64,000 nt of DNA, from NCBI GenBank assembly GCA_013387205.1, contig WARV01000024.1, forward strand, positions 11,283 to 75,282, given 5' to 3'. This document shows positions 1,248-35,650 of this stretch, piece by piece. The notes under the pieces were generated by a model. That model saw only the letters and a list, made by a program, of their open reading frames with translations, ran no database searches and was not told the DNA's origin. A program made the position numbers and the translations under genes. Numbering within the stretch: the stretch's first letter is position 1; each line of letters starts with the position of its first letter. This DNA comes from Patescibacteria group bacterium. GTDB lineage: Bacteria > Patescibacteriota > Doudnabacteria > UBA920.

Positions 1248-1817
1248 TCACAAAGTTTTCTTGAGGTGCTTGGCAGCCAGTATTTCTATTGTAATAATAA
1301 CGCCCACGAAAATTAAAATAAAAAATTCCGCGTACTTGAAATAGTGCTTTAATAAAACATAAGAAGCACTAAACGCAAACCCAAAAAATCCGATAATTAC
1401 CATCCAAATCAGCACCACCCACAGGGCTGTTTTTAAATATTGCCTAAAGGGAACCTTAAGCATCCCGGCCCTGGCCAAAATAGCACGATGCAAGCCGTAA
1501 ACAAATTTAGAAACCATGAGCGTGCGGAACAATTTTTCAAAAAAATGCCTGTCTAAAATTCCAACAGCATTATTGGTAAATCGGGAAATTTTCTTAAACC
1601 TGTTTATGTTTAAGCCAATCCAATACCACAGCAATTCTTCCAAATACGCGCCGCTTAAAACGGCAAAAAATGCAGGAGCGAAACTTAAAGTTCCCTGGGA
1701 AACCAAAAAACAGGCGGTTAAAAGCGTTAAAGTGGCCTCGAAAAACATCCCCAAAAAAAGCGAAAGATAAAGCCAGGCTCTAACATCCTGATTTTTAAGA
1801 ATTTCAAAAAAATCCAT
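1248..1817 (-). CDS. DedA/VTT-domain (SNARE-associated) family membrane protein
   Basis: 189 aa, multi-pass hydrophobic, with DedA-like motifs (..GAYLEELLWYWIG..; F..K..R.....A.....R). Confidence 0.6.
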   Translation of the reverse strand: MDFFEILKNQDVRAWLYLSLFLGMFFEATLTLLTACFLVSQGTLSFAPAFFAVLSGAYLEELLWYWIGLNINRFKKISRFTNNAVGILDRHFFEKLFRTLMVSKFVYGLHRAILARAGMLKVPFRQYLKTALWVVLIWMVIIGFFGFAFSASYVLLKHYFKYAEFFILIFVGVIITIEILAAKHLKKTL

Positions 1818-1843: not shown

Positions 1844-1937
1844 CCCCGCTCTTTCTTAAAGTGGATAATCCACCGCTATCCATCAATTAATGTTTGACGA
1901 ATAGGCAGCGAATTATCTATATGAAGAAAGGGCGGGG
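1844..1937. repeat. Inverted-repeat element (CCCCGCTCTTTCT ... AGAAAGGGCGGGG) flanking the HTH-murA 3' side
   Basis: Arms at 1844-1856 and 1925-1937. A paralogous arm pair lies at 3654-3667 / 3737-3749, on the other flank of the same gene. Confidence 0.6.
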
Positions 1938-1945
1938 CAGTCCTT

Positions 1946-3469
1946 TTAAAAGCTATGGAGATTTTCTATCTTGGCTCCCAGCTTTTTCAGGCGGTTCACC
2001 AAGTCTTCGTAGCCGCGATTTATGGAATAGACATTGCGCAAAACTGACGTACCTTTGGCTGCCAGCATGGCAATTAAAATTATGGCTGCCGGCCGCAAAG
2101 CCGGAGGACAAATAATTTCTGCTGGTTTAAATTCGCTGGGGCCTTCCACAAAAACCCTGTGGGGATCGGCCAAAATAATATTGGCGCGAAGCTTGGTTAA
2201 TTCCATATAATAGATAGCCCGATTTTCATAAACCCAGTCATGGATTAAAGTGGTGCCCGTGGCTTTGGCGGCAATCGGCACGAAGAAGGGAAGGTTGTCT
2301 ATGTTCAAACCGGGGTAGGGCAGGGGATGGATTTTTTCCTCTAAGGCCAAAAGGCGCGATGGATAAGTTTTTATATCGGCCAAGTTTACGTGCCCGTTCA
2401 AGCCTTTGTATTTTTTCAAAATTTTATATTTAAAACCCATCTTTTCCAGTTTCAACAATTCCACTTCCAAAAAATATATCGGGCATCTTTCAATAGTAAT
2501 AGAAGAATCGGTAGTGGCGGCCAAAGACAAAAATAACATTGACTCAATCGGGTCTTCGCTCAAATAGTAACTGGTCGGATGGTTGATATCAGGCTTGCCG
2601 TACACAGTCAGTGTAGACGTGCCAATGCCTTCGATTTTTACGCCTAAGGCAGAAAGGAAATGGCACAAATCCTGTACCATGTAATTTGAAGAGGCAAACT
2701 TGATAACTGTCTTGCCGGGAATTTTACTGGCAGCCATAAGCGCGTTTTCCGTAACCGTATCGCCCATTTCATAAAGCGGGATTTCCGCAGCAGATAATTT
2801 TTCCACACTGACTTCATAATGGTCGTGGGTGGTGTTTATTTTAACTCCCAAATTTTCCAAAGCGAACAAGTGCGGACGCACGGTCCTGGCACCAAGTTTG
2901 CATCCGCCGGCCAAAGGCAGGGAAAAACGCTTAAATAAATGGATTAGCGGGCCAAGAAGCATGAGCACGCTCCTGGTCTTAACCGCTGCTTCAGCATCAA
3001 GCCTGCTTAAATCAAGTTTTTTTGGAGGATTCAACTCCAAATCCGGACCAACCCATTTTATGGCCACCCCTATACTGGTTAGCACTTCCACCAGGCGATG
3101 AACTTCTTCTATGCGAGGCACATTTTTTAAGGTGGTTTTTCCGGAATTAAGCAAGGAAGCGCAAAGTAAAGCCACAGCCGCGTTCTTGGATGTGTTAGTA
3201 GTGACTTTTCCGGACAATTTATGGCCGCCCTGAATTCTAAAGTTCACAGACTGGTCAGCCAAAGTGATAATTTCACGGTTTAAGACGCTGGAGATTTTAC
3301 TAAGCATCTCTGTGCTGAAGTTCTGCTGGCCTTTTTCCATCCTGGCCACTGCGCTTTGCGAAGTTTTCAAGGCTTTGGCGAATTCACCCTGGGTTAAGCC
3401 TTTTAACTCTCTTAACTCCGAAATGAATTTTCCTATTTTTTGCTGTTCTTGGATTGAATTATTTTTCAT
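1946..3469 (-). CDS. murA: UDP-N-acetylglucosamine 1-carboxyvinyltransferase (MurA) with an N-terminal XRE-type helix-turn-helix domain fused
   Basis: 507 aa. Residues 1-70 are a Cro/C1-type HTH (IGKFISELRELKGLTQGEFAKAL..SQSAVARMEKGQ). The rest is full-length MurA (FRIQGGHKLSGKVTTNTSKNAAVALL..). Confidence 0.85.
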   Translation of the reverse strand: MKNNSIQEQQKIGKFISELRELKGLTQGEFAKALKTSQSAVARMEKGQQNFSTEMLSKISSVLNREIITLADQSVNFRIQGGHKLSGKVTTNTSKNAAVALLCASLLNSGKTTLKNVPRIEEVHRLVEVLTSIGVAIKWVGPDLELNPPKKLDLSRLDAEAAVKTRSVLMLLGPLIHLFKRFSLPLAGGCKLGARTVRPHLFALENLGVKINTTHDHYEVSVEKLSAAEIPLYEMGDTVTENALMAASKIPGKTVIKFASSNYMVQDLCHFLSALGVKIEGIGTSTLTVYGKPDINHPTSYYLSEDPIESMLFLSLAATTDSSITIERCPIYFLEVELLKLEKMGFKYKILKKYKGLNGHVNLADIKTYPSRLLALEEKIHPLPYPGLNIDNLPFFVPIAAKATGTTLIHDWVYENRAIYYMELTKLRANIILADPHRVFVEGPSEFKPAEIICPPALRPAAIILIAMLAAKGTSVLRNVYSINRGYEDLVNRLKKLGAKIENLHSF

Positions 3470-3472
3470 TTT

Positions 3473-3562
3473 ATAATCCTAATGCCCCGAATTTTTATCC
3501 GAATGCCCCAAATGAGTCCTGTTTCGGGTCATTTGGATAGGATTCGGATAATTCGAATTATG
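3473..3562. mobile_element. MITE-like repeat family A, copy 2
   Basis: ATAATCCTAATGCCCCGAATTTTTATCCGAATGCCCCAAA...TTTCGGGTCATTTGGATAGGATTCGGATAATTCGAATTATG. Confidence 0.75.
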
Positions 3563-3653
3563 TTTATATCACATATGAGATAACAATAATAATTTACCAA
3601 TTCCAGCAGCTTTGGTCAATACAATAATCCACAATTTATATCATATATGACAA

Positions 3654-3800
3654 ATCCCGCTCTTTCTCCTTCTAAAAAAACAACAAAGAAACATGCATTG
3701 CTTTAATCAGCGCGGTAAAAAAATATTTACAATGAAAGAAAGGGCGGGATGACAAAACCCCGCCCTGAGCAAACCCGAATGGGTTGAAGGGCGGGGGTAG
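3654..3800. repeat. Inverted-repeat element (TCCCGCTCTTTCT ... AGAAAGGGCGGGA, plus extra GGGCGGG arms) flanking the HTH-murA 5' side
   Basis: Paralog of 1844-1937. Additional AAAACCCCGCCCTGAGC and GAAGGGCGGGGG arms lie downstream. Confidence 0.55.
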
Positions 3801-3826: not shown

Positions 3827-4051
3827 TTAGAAATGCAAAATTTTATCAAACCAATTTTCCAAATAATGTGTTTGCAAATTGGTATAATAAATAACCAACA
3901 CACCTGCCAAATATATTACATTTAAAGCCAATACCCTAAGCAGGTCATGCTTAATTACGCGGTATTCCGCGGCATGGTTTAAATACGCATTGGATGTTTT
4001 TTCCGGACTGCCGGATGAAATTTGCTGTTGTTTCTTGTGCTTTTTGCTCAT
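3827..4051 (-). CDS. Hypothetical small protein, one predicted TM helix
   Basis: 74 aa with a basic N-terminus and hydrophobic core. It occupies the position where rpsE would normally follow rplR. Confidence 0.4.
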   Translation of the reverse strand: MSKKHKKQQQISSGSPEKTSNAYLNHAAEYRVIKHDLLRVLALNVIYLAGVLVIYYTNLQTHYLENWFDKILHF

Positions 4052-4172
4052 ATACGAATTTATTGATACTAATATACGAATTAATGCTAATGATACTAAT
4101 GGCTACTAATGCGTACTAAGAAAGAATTAGTTATACATTCGTTTCATTAGTATTCATTGGTAGATTGGTATC
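4052..4172. mobile_element. MITE-like repeat family H, copy 1 (ACGAATT...CTAATGCGTACTAAG...ATTAGT...)
   Basis: Paralogs at 28445-28568 and 47916-48039 share a near-identical AATGCGTACTAAGA(A/G)AGAATTAGTT core. It fills the whole rplR-downstream spacer. Confidence 0.7.
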
Positions 4173-4179
4173 TTTATTG

Positions 4180-4536
4180 TTAAAACTTAAGTCCGCCTTC
4201 CCTGGCCCCTTCAGCCAAAGCTTTTACCCGGCCATGGTACGCGTATCCGCCGCGGTCAAAAACTACGGTTTCAACGCTTTTCTCTTTGGCTTTTTTGGCA
4301 ACCAGCTTGCCGACTTCGGAAGCAATCTCCGACTTTTTGGCTTTGGATTTAATCTCCATGCTGGAAGCGGCTGCTAAAGTCTTACCGCTCTGGTCGTCGA
4401 TCACCTGGGCATAAATATGGCTGTTGGCCCTAAAAACCGATAATCTCGGCCTCTGGCTGGTGCCGCTAACTATACTGCGGACCCTGGCGTGCCTTCTGGT
4501 TCTTTTAATAATTTTGGCTGCGTTGGAATTTTTCAT
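4180..4536 (-). CDS. rplR: 50S ribosomal protein L18
   Basis: 118 aa, [43 protein letters not shown]. Confidence 0.95.
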
Positions 4537-11878: not shown

Positions 11879-12520
11879 TTACTTTAAATAAGTTTTTTCT
11901 ATGACTTTCAAGCTGTCCTGCAACACTACAACTGAATCAGCCTTGAGCACTTCAACTACATTCAAGCTATTTGCCAGCTTCGGGGTAATTCCGGGAATGT
12001 TCCTGGAAGCCCTCTGCAGATTTTCGTCCTTTTTCGGCATCAAAAACATCTGTTTTTTGCCAATCTCTTTGACGGCTTTTTTCAAACCGGAAAGGATTTT
12101 GACGAACTCTTTAGTCTTAGGCTGGTCCAAAACCATTTCATTGATGACAATAAACTTGCCACTCTTGGCTTTGTCGGAAAGGGACATAAACAGCGCTTTG
12201 GTCTTAGCTTTCTTGTTAAGCTTTAATTCCCAGTTCTGGTTTGCTCTCGGACCGAAAGTGATACCGCCATGCCTCCAAATCGGGCTGCGGATAGATCCGG
12301 CTCTGGCGCGGCCAGTGCCTTTTTGCTTCCACGGCTTCTTGCCGCCGCCGCTGACTTCGCCGCGGGTCTTGGTGTGGGATGTTCCCTGGCGGGAGTTTAA
12401 CCTGGAAATCCTGACAGCTTCGGCCAGCAAATGCATCTGCGGTTTGACGTCAAAAATCTTGGAGTTCAATTCAATCTCGCCGACCACTTCTGCTTTTTGG
12501 TTATAGACATTTACTTTCAT
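11879..12520 (-). CDS. rplD: 50S ribosomal protein L4
   Basis: 213 aa. Confidence 0.95.
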   Translation of the reverse strand: MKVNVYNQKAEVVGEIELNSKIFDVKPQMHLLAEAVRISRLNSRQGTSHTKTRGEVSGGGKKPWKQKGTGRARAGSIRSPIWRHGGITFGPRANQNWELKLNKKAKTKALFMSLSDKAKSGKFIVINEMVLDQPKTKEFVKILSGLKKAVKEIGKKQMFLMPKKDENLQRASRNIPGITPKLANSLNVVEVLKADSVVVLQDSLKVIEKTYLK

Positions 12521-12537: not shown

Positions 12538-12625
12538 ATAATCCTAATGCCCCGAATTCTTATCCGAATGCCCCAAACGGTTCCCTTTTCGGGTCATTTG
12601 GATGAATTCGTAGATTCGGATTATG
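12538..12625. mobile_element. MITE-like repeat family A, copy 3 (inside the S10 operon, rplC-rplD spacer)
   Basis: ATAATCCTAATGCCCCGAATTCTTATCCGAATGCCCCAAACGG...CGGGTCATTTGGATGAATTCGTAGATTCGGATTATG. Confidence 0.8.
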
Positions 12626-17792: not shown

Positions 17793-18086
17793 TTAAATAA
17801 TTTTATTATATAAATCTTCCCAATTAGGATTTATCTTCTCAATTAATTCCAATTTCCATTTTCGATACCATCTTTTTAACTGTTTTTCCCGCTTTATGGC
17901 TTCTTCCCTGTCTTCAAAGACTTCATAATAAACCAATCGATGAACCTGGTATTCTTGAGTAAATCCTTTGACAATGTTGTTTTTATGGGTAAAAACCCTG
18001 TTTACAAGATTATTTGTAAAACCGGTATACAAAGTCCCATTCCTATGACTGGCCAGCATATAAACATAATACACTTTATTATCCAT
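17793..18086 (-). CDS. GIY-YIG nuclease family small protein
   Basis: MDNKVYYVYMLASHRNGTLYTGFTNNLVNRVFTHKNN.. The upstream in-frame extension of the ORF runs into the repeat and is probably not translated. Confidence 0.8.
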   Translation of the reverse strand: MDNKVYYVYMLASHRNGTLYTGFTNNLVNRVFTHKNNIVKGFTQEYQVHRLVYYEVFEDREEAIKREKQLKRWYRKWKLELIEKINPNWEDLYNKII

Positions 18087-18120
18087 TGTTTTTGTATTTG
18101 TTTCTGGCTTTTTCCTGGAC

Positions 18121-18300
18121 CTCGGGTCCCATCCTTCGCATAAAGCTACGGCGGGCACAGCAAGCCCGGGGTGGAAACCGAGGACACCATCCAGGAATTT
18201 CGAGTGTATCGGAGAAATATCCGGGATCCAGTACATATTCGCATTGTATAATTCAGCCACGAAGTGGCCCCTTCGAGGCGTACTTATCGGCGACGTTTCT
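18121..18300. repeat. Composite repeat block (family K hairpin, right 74-bp direct repeat at 18161-18234, family G module)
   Basis: CCTTCGCATAAAGCTACGGCGG, then the CAAGCCCGGGGTGGAAACC..CCGGGATCCAGTAC repeat, then CAGCCACGAAGTGGCCCCTTCGAGGCG. Confidence 0.7.
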
Positions 18301-28075: not shown

Positions 28076-28187
28076 CATAATCCGAATTACCCAAAAAATA
28101 TCCTAATAACCCGAAAACAAGACCAACCAAAGGTTGGTCTTGTTTATTTAGGGGCATTCGGATGCTAATTCGGGGCATTAGGATTAC
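28076..28187. mobile_element. MITE-like repeat family A, copy 4 (reverse orientation)
   Basis: CATAATCCGAATTACCC...GGGGCATTCGGATGCTAATTCGGGGCATTAGGATTAC. Confidence 0.75.
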
Positions 28188-28444: not shown

Positions 28445-28568
28445 AATTACGAATTATACTGACCAATCTACTAATGTAACGAATAAAGCGAATGACAACT
28501 AATGCGTACTAAGAGAGAATTAGTTGTCATTGGTTATTATTAGCATGAATTCGTTGATTGGTTAATCC
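28445..28568. mobile_element. MITE-like repeat family H, copy 2
   Basis: It fills the entire spacer between the MGMT start and the DUF3048 stop. Confidence 0.7.
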
Positions 28569-35296: not shown

Positions 35297-35650
35297 TTAA
35301 GATTTTTTTCCTGCGGAATTTTTCGTAGAAAACATTATTGCTGTAATTTCATCAGCTTCCTTTAATAATGGTTCAACTAAATTTATTTTCATCAATTTTG
35401 AATCAATTATCATTTCCAACCAAAAACAACTTTCATCTGATTCTTCAACCACTATTCCGATTTTCGCAACGAATTCCTGTTTTGATCTTGATCTGCAAGC
35501 AGCGCGATAATTAACCGCTACTGCAGTCCCAGATCTCAGTAATTGATTTCCTATTACCCTACCTGCATCATTTCTTGGTAAAGCTTGGGTTAACTTAATA
35601 ATCCTAAGAGCGAATTGTTTCGTCCTATTTTTTAGATCTTGTTTATCCAT
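35297..35650 (-). CDS. Four-helix-bundle protein (TIGR02436 / 23S rRNA intervening-sequence protein family)
   Basis: 117 aa, ..QLLRSGTAVAVNYRAA..SKQEFVAKIGIVVEESDESCFWLEMI. Confidence 0.8.
   Translation of the reverse strand: MDKQDLKNRTKQFALRIIKLTQALPRNDAGRVIGNQLLRSGTAVAVNYRAACRSRSKQEFVAKIGIVVEESDESCFWLEMIIDSKLMKINLVEPLLKEADEITAIMFSTKNSAGKKS

Follow-up and report, generated by a model that had tools for sequence, protein, structure and literature searches.

A MurA protein with an N-terminal Cro/C1-type HTH domain in Patescibacteria: probable autoregulation and flanking hairpin elements of a proposed mobile family

The murA gene in the 64-kb stretch of DNA analyzed here (hereinafter, the window) encodes one intact protein, in which an HTH domain of the Cro/C1 (XRE) type is fused to the N-terminus of a full MurA that retains all catalytic residues. 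MurA (UDP-N-acetylglucosamine 1-carboxyvinyltransferase) catalyzes the first committed step of peptidoglycan synthesis and is the target of fosfomycin; in the bacteria that have been studied well, its known control consists of feedback inhibition and regulated proteolysis, not of a DNA-binding domain on the enzyme. Taken as a whole, the locus is read here, with reasonable though not full confidence, as an autoregulating HTH-MurA and independent insertions of mobile elements around its gene (Table 1).

Table 1. Positions of the murA locus features in the window
Feature	Position	Strand	Evidence or remark
DedA/VTT-domain membrane protein gene	1248..1817	-	conserved downstream neighbour of murA
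E1, E-family hairpin element, 13-bp IR	1844..1937	.	in the murA-dedA spacer; the interior is itself a long hairpin
HTH-MurA gene	1946..3469	-	507 aa; uninterrupted frame; Pfam/NCBIfam matches; AlphaFold2 model; Foldseek
MurA (enolpyruvyl transferase) domain, aa 76-504	1958..3244	-	NCBIfam; solved MurA alignment; Foldseek
Cro/C1 (XRE)-type HTH domain, aa 16-67	3269..3424	-	Pfam HTH_3; 28-homologue alignment; modelled helices
Family A MITE copy	3472..3562	.	between O1 and the murA start codon; lengthens the leader by ~90 nt
O1, promoter-proximal candidate operator ATATCACATATGAGAT	3566..3581	.	one mismatch to ATATCA-N4-TGATAT
Predicted murA promoter, TTGACC-17 nt-TAAATT with upstream TG	3591..3619	-	between O2 and O1
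O2, distal candidate operator ATATCATATATGACAA	3638..3653	.	72 bp from O1
E2, E-family hairpin element, 14-bp IR	3654..3750	.	unstructured 69-nt interior; between the ORF74 terminator and O2
Terminator-like hairpin after ORF74, CCCCGCCCT...AGGGCGGGG then TTTTG	3758..3796	-	stem resembles E arms
ORF74, small conserved ORF without family match	3827..4051	-	precedes HTH-murA in relatives too

Architecture and spread of the HTH-MurA fusion

The original prediction that an HTH domain and MurA reside in one polypeptide is borne out by the Pfam search, in which residues 16-67 of a single 507-aa frame match HTH_3 (PF01381; E 5.6e-13; 49.2 bits, the cutoff being 23) and residues 80-494 match EPSP_synthase (PF00275; E 2.3e-46); the N-terminal domain additionally matches HTH_31 and HTH_19, which are classical DNA-binding models. 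Among the NCBIfam profiles, NF006873 (a MurA subfamily) is matched above its cutoff (325.2 bits vs 297), and the scores obtained with the equivalog profile TIGR01072 (319.6) and with NF009470 (241.8) are below the respective cutoffs of 392.7 and 552. Alignment with 33 solved MurA sequences yielded E-values from 1e-40 to 1.5e-57, and the AlphaFold2 model (mean pLDDT 85.8) compared with solved MurA structures using Foldseek gave target TM-scores of 0.87-0.94. The motifs that align with solved MurA are SKNAA (containing Lys95), LAGGCKLGARTV (Cys190 and Arg195), SEDPIES (Asp306) and ENRAIY (Arg417); these five residues, which we take to be the equivalents of E. coli K22, C115, R120, D305 and R397, respectively, are invariant in an alignment of 28 homologues. 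Like canonical bacterial MurA, for example that of E. coli or E. cloacae (PDB 1uae and 1ejc), to which it is 26-30% identical, HTH-MurA has the two-domain fold, the active-site Cys loop and the conserved Lys, Arg and Asp; it differs by the N-terminal HTH of ~75 aa, a lineage-specific insertion at approximately aa 345-385 and the TIGR01072 score below the cutoff.

In the structural model, the HTH domain consists of four helices (residues 2-22, 27-33, 38-45 and 53-62) with pLDDT values of 62-85. The segment comprising helix 2, the turn and helix 3, LTQGEFAKALKTSQSAVARMEKGQQN, is of the canonical Cro/C1 type, and the segment predicted to form the recognition helix, TSQSAVARME, hardly varies among the 28 homologues, its conservation being equal to that of the active site. 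Purifying selection on both halves of the protein is supported.

Contrary to the original prediction, which regarded this architecture as rare, the search for the same fusion in related lineages identified it in 120 of the 120 closest homologues (70-80% identity, all from Patescibacteria and from independent assemblies) and in eight of the nine deeper full-length representatives of clusters formed at 50% identity. Judging from these sequences, the fusion is the standard form of MurA in a large clade of CPR/Patescibacteria. Sister MurA proteins at 65% identity (P0121) lack the HTH, indicating that this domain is dispensable for the enzyme. A full-text literature search of incomplete coverage returned no paper on an HTH-MurA fusion.

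The probability that the fusion is an artefact, in which a small regulator gene would have been joined to murA through a frameshift, mis-assembly or a wrongly called start, is practically negligible. There is no stop and no change of frame in 1946-3469, the linker between the two domains is short and conserved in the homologues, and the architecture of ~505 aa recurs throughout the top matches, which come from many independent assemblies and sources, as well as in the deep clusters.

A conserved palindrome at murA and the autoregulation model

Comparison of the murA loci of relatives revealed a 16-bp palindrome, ATATCAYATATGATAT, which in nine of nine relatives lies no more than 35 nt from the murA ATG (15-35 nt upstream), irrespective of whether the upstream neighbour is ORF69, mreB or another gene. 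Usually, there is a second copy ~72 bp further upstream, so that the pair brackets the promoter; the 72-bp spacing is common to the L001, L004 and L143 loci and the window. Altogether, ~75 kb of the relatives' murA loci contain 15 matches to the motif, and the palindrome by murA accounts for 12 of these. The relatives also have an equivalent predicted promoter, TTGAC(A/T)-17-TAnnnT, at the same position as in the window. Within the window, O1 and O2 are the only good matches with an AT-rich centre. The other matches, considered as possible further operator copies, were rejected: they combine a TGGTAT half-site with GC-rich centres and look like chance occurrences or -10 regions. The palindrome scan of the window detected no regulon beyond murA.

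The distance between O1 and the murA start is 112 nt in the window vs 15-35 nt in the relatives. The family A MITE that the original prediction placed directly upstream of the gene is real (3472-3562). Three other copies of this family are present in the window, and the copy at murA folds with -28.3 kcal/mol on the mRNA strand; no match to the family outside the source genome was found in 143 fetched loci. This MITE would represent a separate insertion into the murA leader, with the possible effect of adding ~90 structured nt.

Judging by these comparisons, the probable target of the HTH is the 16-bp palindrome and not the repeats that flank the gene, and HTH-MurA probably represses its own promoter. 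According to this model, HTH-MurA, which would be the normal MurA of the lineage with a permanently fused N-terminal XRE-type HTH (a tblastn search identified no second murA-like sequence in the 64-kb window), binds, most likely as a dimer or a higher oligomer, to the two copies of ATATCAYATATGATAT, such that the promoter, with O1 just 3' of the -10 box and O2 ~72 bp upstream, would be bracketed and repressed. The window retains both sites, and this retention supports autoregulation; the original suggestion of autoregulation is thus plausible, with the constant presence of the palindrome by murA and the position of the promoter between O1 and O2 as its comparative support. Several considerations count against this model. 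DNA binding by the HTH, repression and the oligomeric state are all inferred from sequence. The palindrome calls for a dimer whereas MurA enzymes are usually described as monomers, and some other factor could occupy the palindrome. Furthermore, the proximal palindrome of L143 is degenerate, with 3 mismatches, and the sister MurA at 65% identity has no HTH.

Alternatively, the HTH could be a protein-interaction module that tethers MurA to the cell-wall machinery, with the palindrome bound by another regulator. The HTH of RodZ contacts MreB. Given this RodZ precedent for an XRE-like HTH that serves protein contact (RodZ is treated in PMC9804626), the location of HTH-murA as the divergent neighbour of mreB in two relatives, L141 and L144, is in line with such a tether. 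Nevertheless, we consider this possibility unlikely: the HTH fits three DNA-binding models, and no RodZ-type model was returned for it in the Pfam search; the helix 2-turn-helix 3 pattern is canonical for Cro/C1 and the recognition helix is invariant; the matching palindrome accompanies the gene in every context examined; and no other regulator is conserved beside murA in the loci of the relatives.

If it represses its own promoter, HTH-MurA would be an enzyme-repressor of the BirA/PutA/NadR kind. BirA is a biotin ligase with an HTH, PutA is a proline dehydrogenase with a ribbon-helix-helix domain, and NadR combines an HTH with an NMN adenylyltransferase. The likeness consists in the combination of a metabolic enzyme with a DNA-binding domain by which the promoter of the enzyme's gene or pathway is repressed (as proposed for HTH-MurA) and in an operator palindrome that overlaps the promoter; the enzyme, the pathway and the HTH class (Cro/C1) are different, and the comparison draws on general knowledge of the three systems. 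Ligand control of DNA binding defines BirA and PutA; that occupancy of the MurA domain by substrate or product tunes DNA binding is a speculation. CPR bacteria have tiny genomes and, as far as is known, few transcription factors. A large clade of these bacteria appears to have a repressor domain hard-wired onto MurA, along with a conserved pair of candidate operators around its own promoter. Should autoregulation hold, this would be a simple, testable mode of transcriptional control in organisms that are nearly impossible to study genetically, and HTH-MurA would join the small class of enzyme-repressors as a new member.

Hairpin elements flanking murA

On both sides of murA, in direct orientation, there are non-coding elements of 92-97 nt with inverted repeats of 12-14 bp, E1 and E2, the arms of which are identical over 12 nt. 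Exact copies of the 12-mer CCCGCTCTTTCT lie at 1845-1856 and 3656-3667, and those of its partner AGAAAGGGCGGG at 1925-1936 and 3737-3748; there are no others in the 64 kb. The interiors of E1 and E2 are unrelated in sequence, and hence the original description of paralogous inverted-repeat elements at both ends of the gene holds for the arms only. An 8-bp direct repeat, ATGACAAA, flanks E2 (3647-3654 and 3749-3756), and removal of E2 together with one copy of this repeat yields GGGGTTTTGTCATATATGATATAA, a reconstructed empty site that matches the uninterrupted site of L143. E1 has no target duplication; the murA-dedA spacer in which it lies is 128 nt long vs 21-32 nt in L001, L002 and L004. 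In comparison with the relatives, E1, E2 and the family A MITE all appear to be insertions; an Rfam search produced no match at any of the three, either at the gathering thresholds or at E <= 1.

We propose that E1 and E2 are two independent insertions of a mobile hairpin family of ~95 bp, which would be neither marks of a murA cassette nor targets of the HTH. As possible side effects, E1 would place a very stable hairpin with a U-rich tail between murA and dedA, and E2 would have duplicated the edge of O2 without destroying this site.

The original prediction tied these repeats to murA and envisaged binding of the HTH to them. Under such a scenario, the elements would be partners of the gene, namely, HTH operators or the ends of a mobile murA cassette inserted after rplR, and two elements with identical arms in direct orientation on either side of the gene, as well as the end of the ribosomal operon nearby at rplR, would fit. 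This scenario is close to refuted, and its probability appears to be very low. The E arms are missing from the murA loci of all 11 relatives, the same arms are scattered among CPR genomes (those of Saccharibacteria and Kaiserbacteria included, with copies within the genes for RNase P RNA and in the vicinity of tRNA genes), and what is conserved at murA is another motif, the 16-bp palindrome. Moreover, the block ORF74-murA-dedA-GIY-YIG-rlmH retains the same order in relatives that have no E elements, so that murA was not brought in as a cassette, and E1 lies between two genes that form a conserved pair. It also follows from the shared order that the break in the ribosomal operon is between rplR and ORF74 (4052-4179), not at murA. 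Thus, murA does not occupy the place where rpsE-rplO-secY would be expected, as originally proposed, but is found in its normal neighbourhood, the breakpoint being one gene further upstream.

Two other identities of the elements were considered and rejected. Integron attC sites are incompatible with the sequence of the arms CCCGCYCTTTCT and AGAAAGRGCGGG, in which there are no core sites (RYYYAAC/GTTRRRY), and with the conserved murA synteny in relatives without the elements. As for generic terminators, the stems of the other terminators in the window are unrelated to the E arms, and the GC-rich end of the arms is outermost.

The E family in CPR genomes

The E family appears to be a small mobile hairpin element that is widespread in CPR genomes. 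It is represented by more than 130 occurrences in CPR DNA, among which there are at least 117 distinct copies, in hosts that include Saccharibacteria and Kaiserbacteria and in unrelated contexts. Arm pairs with a gap of 55-85 nt were found 15 times in the genome collection, compared to ~0.1 expected according to our own estimate; the metagenome collection contains at least 120 of them. The length distribution peaks at 95 nt, with terminal inverted repeats of 12-14 bp and a variable interior of ~71 nt; in 860 kb of fetched loci, longer arm pairs were limited to two (264 and 268 nt), and the arms also occur as short hairpins, with loops of 1-9 nt. The arms are often followed by GT, and there is no conserved GTAG box. 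Unrelated flanks surround cores with 97-100% identity (L058 3146 vs 4048, on one contig; L082 vs L096), and among paralogous copies of a composite repeat of ~250 nt, the core takes either orientation with respect to the shared flank. Some E copies interrupt RNA genes: those of RNase P RNA, at hairpins P3 and P12, and those of tRNAs, at the anticodon arm.

Several features speak against the mobile-element reading: a target duplication is absent in 75 of the 117 copies, E1 included; the lengths of those that are present are irregular (TNNA repeats of 4 bp flank about eight independent copies, and overall the repeats are inconsistent, 4 or 7-8 bp); no transposase partner was noted for the family; and E1 and E2 share only the arms. 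The possibility that the interiors are degenerate tRNAs or long palindromes was rejected, given that they are mostly unstructured (median z -0.6) and that a tRNA is present in only 2 of the 117 copies. With regard to a phage origin of the family, no match was found in viral contigs.

Another explanation is that E1 and E2 have been retained at murA for a useful RNA or DNA structure: E1 might uncouple dedA from murA by termination or attenuation, or either element might be a processing or stabilizing hairpin or a small invertible promoter switch. On the mRNA strand, E1 indeed has a folding energy of -50.2 kcal/mol (z -8.3), with GUUUAUUUUG following it, its interior contains a promoter-like sequence on the + strand (TTGACG-17 nt-CTATAT), the core occurs in both orientations relative to one flanking repeat in other genomes, and the arms covary in a manner that preserves pairing (at arm position 6, C-G in 75 cases, T-A in 28 and mixed in 45). 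On balance, this explanation appears improbable. The murA loci of relatives have neither element, the interior of E2 is unstructured (z of about 0) and the median z of the family is -0.6, and the promoter-like match in E1 was missed by the consensus scan. In addition, the mixed-arm copies have the non-pairing C..A combination on the mRNA-sense strand in 12 of 15 cases, which is the opposite of what selection for an mRNA hairpin would produce, and the orientation differences observed are those between paralogous copies.

The insertion reading of E1 and E2 invites comparison with known repeat families. Similarly to the Correia/NEMIS elements of Neisseria and other MITEs, E elements are non-coding, ~100 bp long and bounded by terminal inverted repeats, with many copies in intergenic or intra-operon spacers, co-transcribed hairpins and identical cores in different contexts; in contrast to these, the E interiors are extremely variable while the element length is fixed at ~95 nt, arm conservation extends over whole CPR classes, target duplications follow no regular pattern (none, 4 bp or 7-8 bp), and no parent insertion sequence is known. 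The REP/BIME/REPIN sequences of proteobacteria resemble E in being GC-rich imperfect palindromes that form single short hairpins or pairs ~70 nt apart, and in forming mosaics with other motifs between operon genes, but a single E arm is not palindromic, E has no conserved tetranucleotide of the GTAG type, and no RAYT transposase is known for it. Hairpin insertions tolerated inside functional genes, as observed for E, are also known from Rickettsia palindromic elements and 23S rRNA intervening sequences, although the sequences and hosts of these are other than those of the E family.

A more far-reaching interpretation, which we offer only tentatively and consider doubtful, is that E elements are a previously undescribed, CPR-wide, hairpin-ended mobile module rather than a conventional MITE. 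The fixed stem of 12-14 bp would be recognized as a hairpin, and the interior of ~71 nt would be free cargo; insertion would be preferentially into the tips of hairpins already present (P3 and P12 of RNase P RNA, anticodon arms of tRNAs, terminators), and some copies would bring along a whole tRNA gene to replace the one that they disrupt (L010 for Trp, L133 for Val). If this were the case, the presence of E1 and E2 at murA would be incidental and the family would be a new kind of element. A full-text search of the literature, in which coverage was likewise incomplete, found no paper on CPR MITEs or hairpin repeats. The E family accounts for unusual operon spacers in CPR genomes and for insertions in their RNase P RNA and tRNA genes, and such insertions can confuse annotation.

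The HTH-MurA protein and its distribution

HTH-murA is a single unbroken frame of 507 aa in which Pfam identifies HTH_3 (aa 16-67, E 5.6e-13) followed by EPSP_synthase (aa 80-494, E 2.3e-46), in agreement with the original prediction of a DNA-binding domain fused to MurA. The protein scores 325.2 bits against NF006873, an NCBIfam MurA subfamily model (cutoff 297), and 319.6 bits, below the cutoff of 392.7, against the stricter equivalog TIGR01072. The catalytic part can be aligned over its whole length with solved MurA enzymes (best E 1.5e-57), with SKNAA, LAGGCKLGARTV, SEDPIES and ENRAIY in register with the respective motifs, and the AlphaFold2 model (mean pLDDT 85.8) superimposes on MurA crystal structures with target-normalised TM-scores of 0.87-0.94. 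Both domains are conserved: across 28 aligned homologues, the TSQSAVARME segment of the recognition helix and the catalytic residues Lys95, Cys190, Arg195, Asp306 and Arg417 are essentially invariant. A second MurA-like sequence was not detected within the 64 kb window.

All of the best 120 database matches are ~505 aa long, show 70-80% identity and contain both Pfam domains; the named sources among them are Patescibacteria, Doudnabacteria, Parcubacteria and Paceibacterota, and many independent assemblies are represented. An exhaustive search over 50%-identity cluster representatives identified nine further full-length clusters at 33-55% identity, eight of which score with both HTH_3 and EPSP_synthase. 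Judging from these homologues, the fusion is real and old; it is found in related lineages, and the architecture initially described as rare is common in its own. Sister MurA proteins without the HTH also exist, for example P0121 (443 aa, 65% identical, with a complete but different N-terminus), and therefore the HTH domain defines a clade rather than all Patescibacteria (CPR). An assembly or frameshift artefact is very unlikely because the two domains co-occur in every one of these 120 matches, from many independent sources. Database entries name the fusion proteins plainly as MurA, and no published description of the fusion, or of E- or family A-type repeats, was found in the literature searched.

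Gene neighborhood and candidate operators

The window and the relatives share the order small ORF-terminator-HTH-murA-dedA-(GIY-YIG)-rlmH; therefore, murA is in its native context and does not take the place of rpsE-rplO-secY, as had been proposed. The difference begins upstream of the small ORF (ORF74), where the relatives carry genes for DUF4446, bactofilin and a DAG-kinase-like protein, whereas the window contains the end of an S10-spc ribosomal operon that stops at rplR; rpsE, rplO and secY are missing among the window ORFs scanned. The rplR/ORF74 junction contains a third palindromic repeat of the ATACTAATG type, part of which recurs in the window. ORF74 encodes a small protein that has a hydrophobic tail and matches no Pfam family; in most relatives, its conserved counterpart (67-70 aa) immediately precedes HTH-murA. 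The window further contains two small GIY-YIG nuclease-domain ORFs and an ORF for a "23S rRNA intervening sequence protein" (PF05635), at 963-1199, 17793-18260 and 35297-35650.

Comparison of the relatives' DNA upstream of HTH-murA, obtained by exact-protein look-up, revealed a 16-bp palindrome, ATATCAYATATGATAT, located 15-35 nt upstream of the start codon at all 9 loci compared and overlapping or directly following a predicted TTGAC(A/T)-17-TAnnnT promoter. In several relatives, a second copy is present ~72 bp further upstream, just past the small ORF's terminator. The palindrome is kept at murA whatever the upstream neighbor (small ORF, mreB or other), and murA-upstream sites account for 12 of the 15 matches (≤2 mismatches) in ~75 kb of the relatives' loci. 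The window has the same candidate arrangement, with palindrome matches O1 and O2 on the two sides of a predicted promoter; the remaining matches in the window appear unrelated.

For Cro/C1-type repressors, the classic hallmark of autorepression is an invariant recognition helix combined with a palindrome that accompanies the gene at its promoter. The most likely mechanism, we infer, is that O1 and O2 are bound by oligomers of HTH-MurA, which would thereby repress murA transcription (and that of dedA where both genes share a transcript) and tie MurA supply to MurA concentration; more speculatively, domain closure of MurA induced by substrate or product might alter the affinity for DNA. Autoregulation, as originally suggested, accordingly keeps a plausible basis in the conserved promoter palindrome, but not in the flanking inverted repeats. 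A role of the HTH as a RodZ-like protein-contact module, for which the sole hint is that mreB adjoins HTH-murA in two loci, would leave the conserved palindrome unexplained and seems improbable. Under the autorepression model, HTH-murA would be a new variant of enzyme-repressor fusion, of moderate interest because the model is testable. In L141 (619-1683) and L144 (284-1297), HTH-murA is divergent from the neighboring mreB, and the palindrome lies between the two genes.

Coordinates of the features in the window and in fetched loci (L numbers)
Feature	Location	Remarks
HTH-MurA ORF	1946..3469	minus strand
O1, candidate operator	3566-3581	palindrome match, 72 bp from O2
O2, candidate operator	3638-3653	palindrome match, 72 bp from O1
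Predicted murA promoter	between O2 and O1	TTGACC-17-TAAATT
ORF74	3827-4051	minus strand
rplR	4180..4536	minus strand
rplR/ORF74 junction	4052-4179	28-nt stretch recurs at 28498-28525
Family A copies (n=4)	560-660; 3472-3562; 12541-12620; 28080-28184	second is copy 2
E1 12-mers	1845-1856/1925-1936	
E2 12-mers	3656-3667/3737-3748	
Direct repeats flanking E2	3647-3654; 3749-3756	8 bp
E in RNase P RNA helix P12	L062 1057-1150; L120 495-587	gene identity by Rfam
E in RNase P RNA helix P3	L050 971-1061; L056 3158-3248; L088 166-263	gene identity by Rfam
Nested tRNA genes	L010 2920-3125	complete tRNA-Trp between E arms
Nested tRNA genes	L133 60-235	complete tRNA-Val between E arms; minus strand
Mosaic spacers rpsH-rplF, rplF-rplR	L058 3080-3370; 3925-4200	CPR ribosomal-protein operon, ~280 nt each

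Insertions at the murA locus

Comparison with the relatives shows that the inverted-repeat elements E1 and E2, on either side of HTH-murA, and the family A copy in its leader are insertions. E1 and E2 had been described as matching; they do share the exact 12-mers CCCGCTCTTTCT and AGAAAGGGCGGG, but the interiors are unrelated, so that paralogy is limited to the arms. E arms were not found at any relative's murA locus examined. The murA-dedA spacer is 128 nt in the window versus 21-32 nt in the relatives, and E1 is the difference. E2 is flanked by the direct repeat ATGACAAA, and deletion of E2 with one repeat copy yields GGGGTTTTGTCATATATGATATAA, the uninterrupted terminator-operator junction of the fetched locus L143; because the duplicated target restores the O2 half-site, E2 leaves O2 intact. 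The interior of E1 is structured (z -7.1; about 0 for E2), and the predicted hairpin of E1 (-50 kcal/mol), followed by a U-rich stretch, is placed between murA and dedA. An alternative hairpin, likewise terminator-like, is possible at 3741-3766 on the minus strand: there, the adjoining E2 arm, CCCGCCCT, can pair with the ORF74 terminator's 3' strand, AGGGCGGGG, and TTCTTTCATT follows.

Family A, a separate MITE (miniature inverted-repeat transposable element) type, consists of 17-nt ATCCNAATGCCCCRAAT units in direct and inverted order, with the ends ATAATCC...GGATTAT. Copy 2 lies between O1 and the start codon, immediately upstream of murA as predicted, so that the ATG is separated from the candidate operators by 112 and 184 nt rather than about 20 and 92; it adds ~90 structured nt (-28 kcal/mol) to the leader. 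Of the four copies in the window, three share one orientation and terminate 3-20 nt before the start codon of a minus-strand gene (rlmH, murA or the gene at 11879..12520); family A was not detected in the 143 fetched loci. Taken together, the three insertions probably alter the proposed murA circuit only incidentally.

The E family across CPR

The E arm pair, 55-85 nt apart, has 15 matches in the collection of species-representative genomes, almost all of them from Saccharibacteria, Kaiserbacteria, Parcubacteria and other Patescibacteria, at least 120 in metagenome contigs and none in viral contigs. The properties of the family were computed on 117 distinct copies among the matches listed; these show a sharp length peak at 95 nt and highly variable, mostly unstructured interiors (median z -0.6). 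Arm position 6 covaries among the matches listed (C-G 75, T-A 28, mixed 45), and the base pair just outside the 12-mers likewise alternates between C-G and T-A. The arms also form short hairpins with loops of 1-9 nt.

Some E cores share 97-100% identity although their flanks are unrelated, which identifies a ~101-nt unit including a 14-bp inverted repeat as the mobile entity; two such copies occupy consecutive spacers of a CPR ribosomal-protein operon on one contig. Because target duplications are irregular (none in 75 of the 117 listed copies, 4-bp TNNA in ~8 independent cases, 7-8 bp at E2) and no parent element or transposase was identified, we describe the family, from its sequence features, as MITE/REP-like in behavior and assign it to neither class. 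E1 and E2 are, on this comparison, mobile-element copies, and the E repeats a new variant of MITE/REP-like repeats. Both this distribution and the synteny of the murA neighborhood contradict the original view of the flanking repeats as partners of murA, and their being HTH operators or boundaries of a murA cassette is highly implausible.

In mixed-arm copies (15 loci including E1 and E2), the gene-sense strand reads non-pairing C...A in 12 cases versus 3, an excess that points to a directional bias of mutation or repair, as opposed to selection for a hairpin in the mRNA. That E1 or E2 is under selection for a structural role, or is an invertible switch, is unlikely given this excess on the mRNA strand and the lack of conservation of either element at murA.

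The behavior of the E family inside RNA genes is of further, more speculative interest. In bacterial class A RNase P RNA genes (Rfam), E copies with GC-rich interiors substitute the tips of helices P12 and P3, the P3 copies lying between GCGGAGAATCGC and GAGGAAAGTCCG. In the two nested tRNA loci, the E-tRNA unit is embedded in another, similar tRNA-like gene at the anticodon-arm region, with one half of that gene on either side; in L010, the inner and outer genes have nearly identical 3' halves. The L058 spacers are filled with a mosaic of hairpin modules, identical E copies and variant arms CCCAGCCCTTTCT among them, in an arrangement that resembles BIME-type mosaics. Finally, with respect to one and the same ~250-nt composite repeat in the flank, the E core (arms and interior) is found in either orientation (L033, L038 and L082 versus L040, L096, L129 and L028; L054 versus L081); in one such pair, the core is 100% identical and inverted, and one flank is 97% identical.
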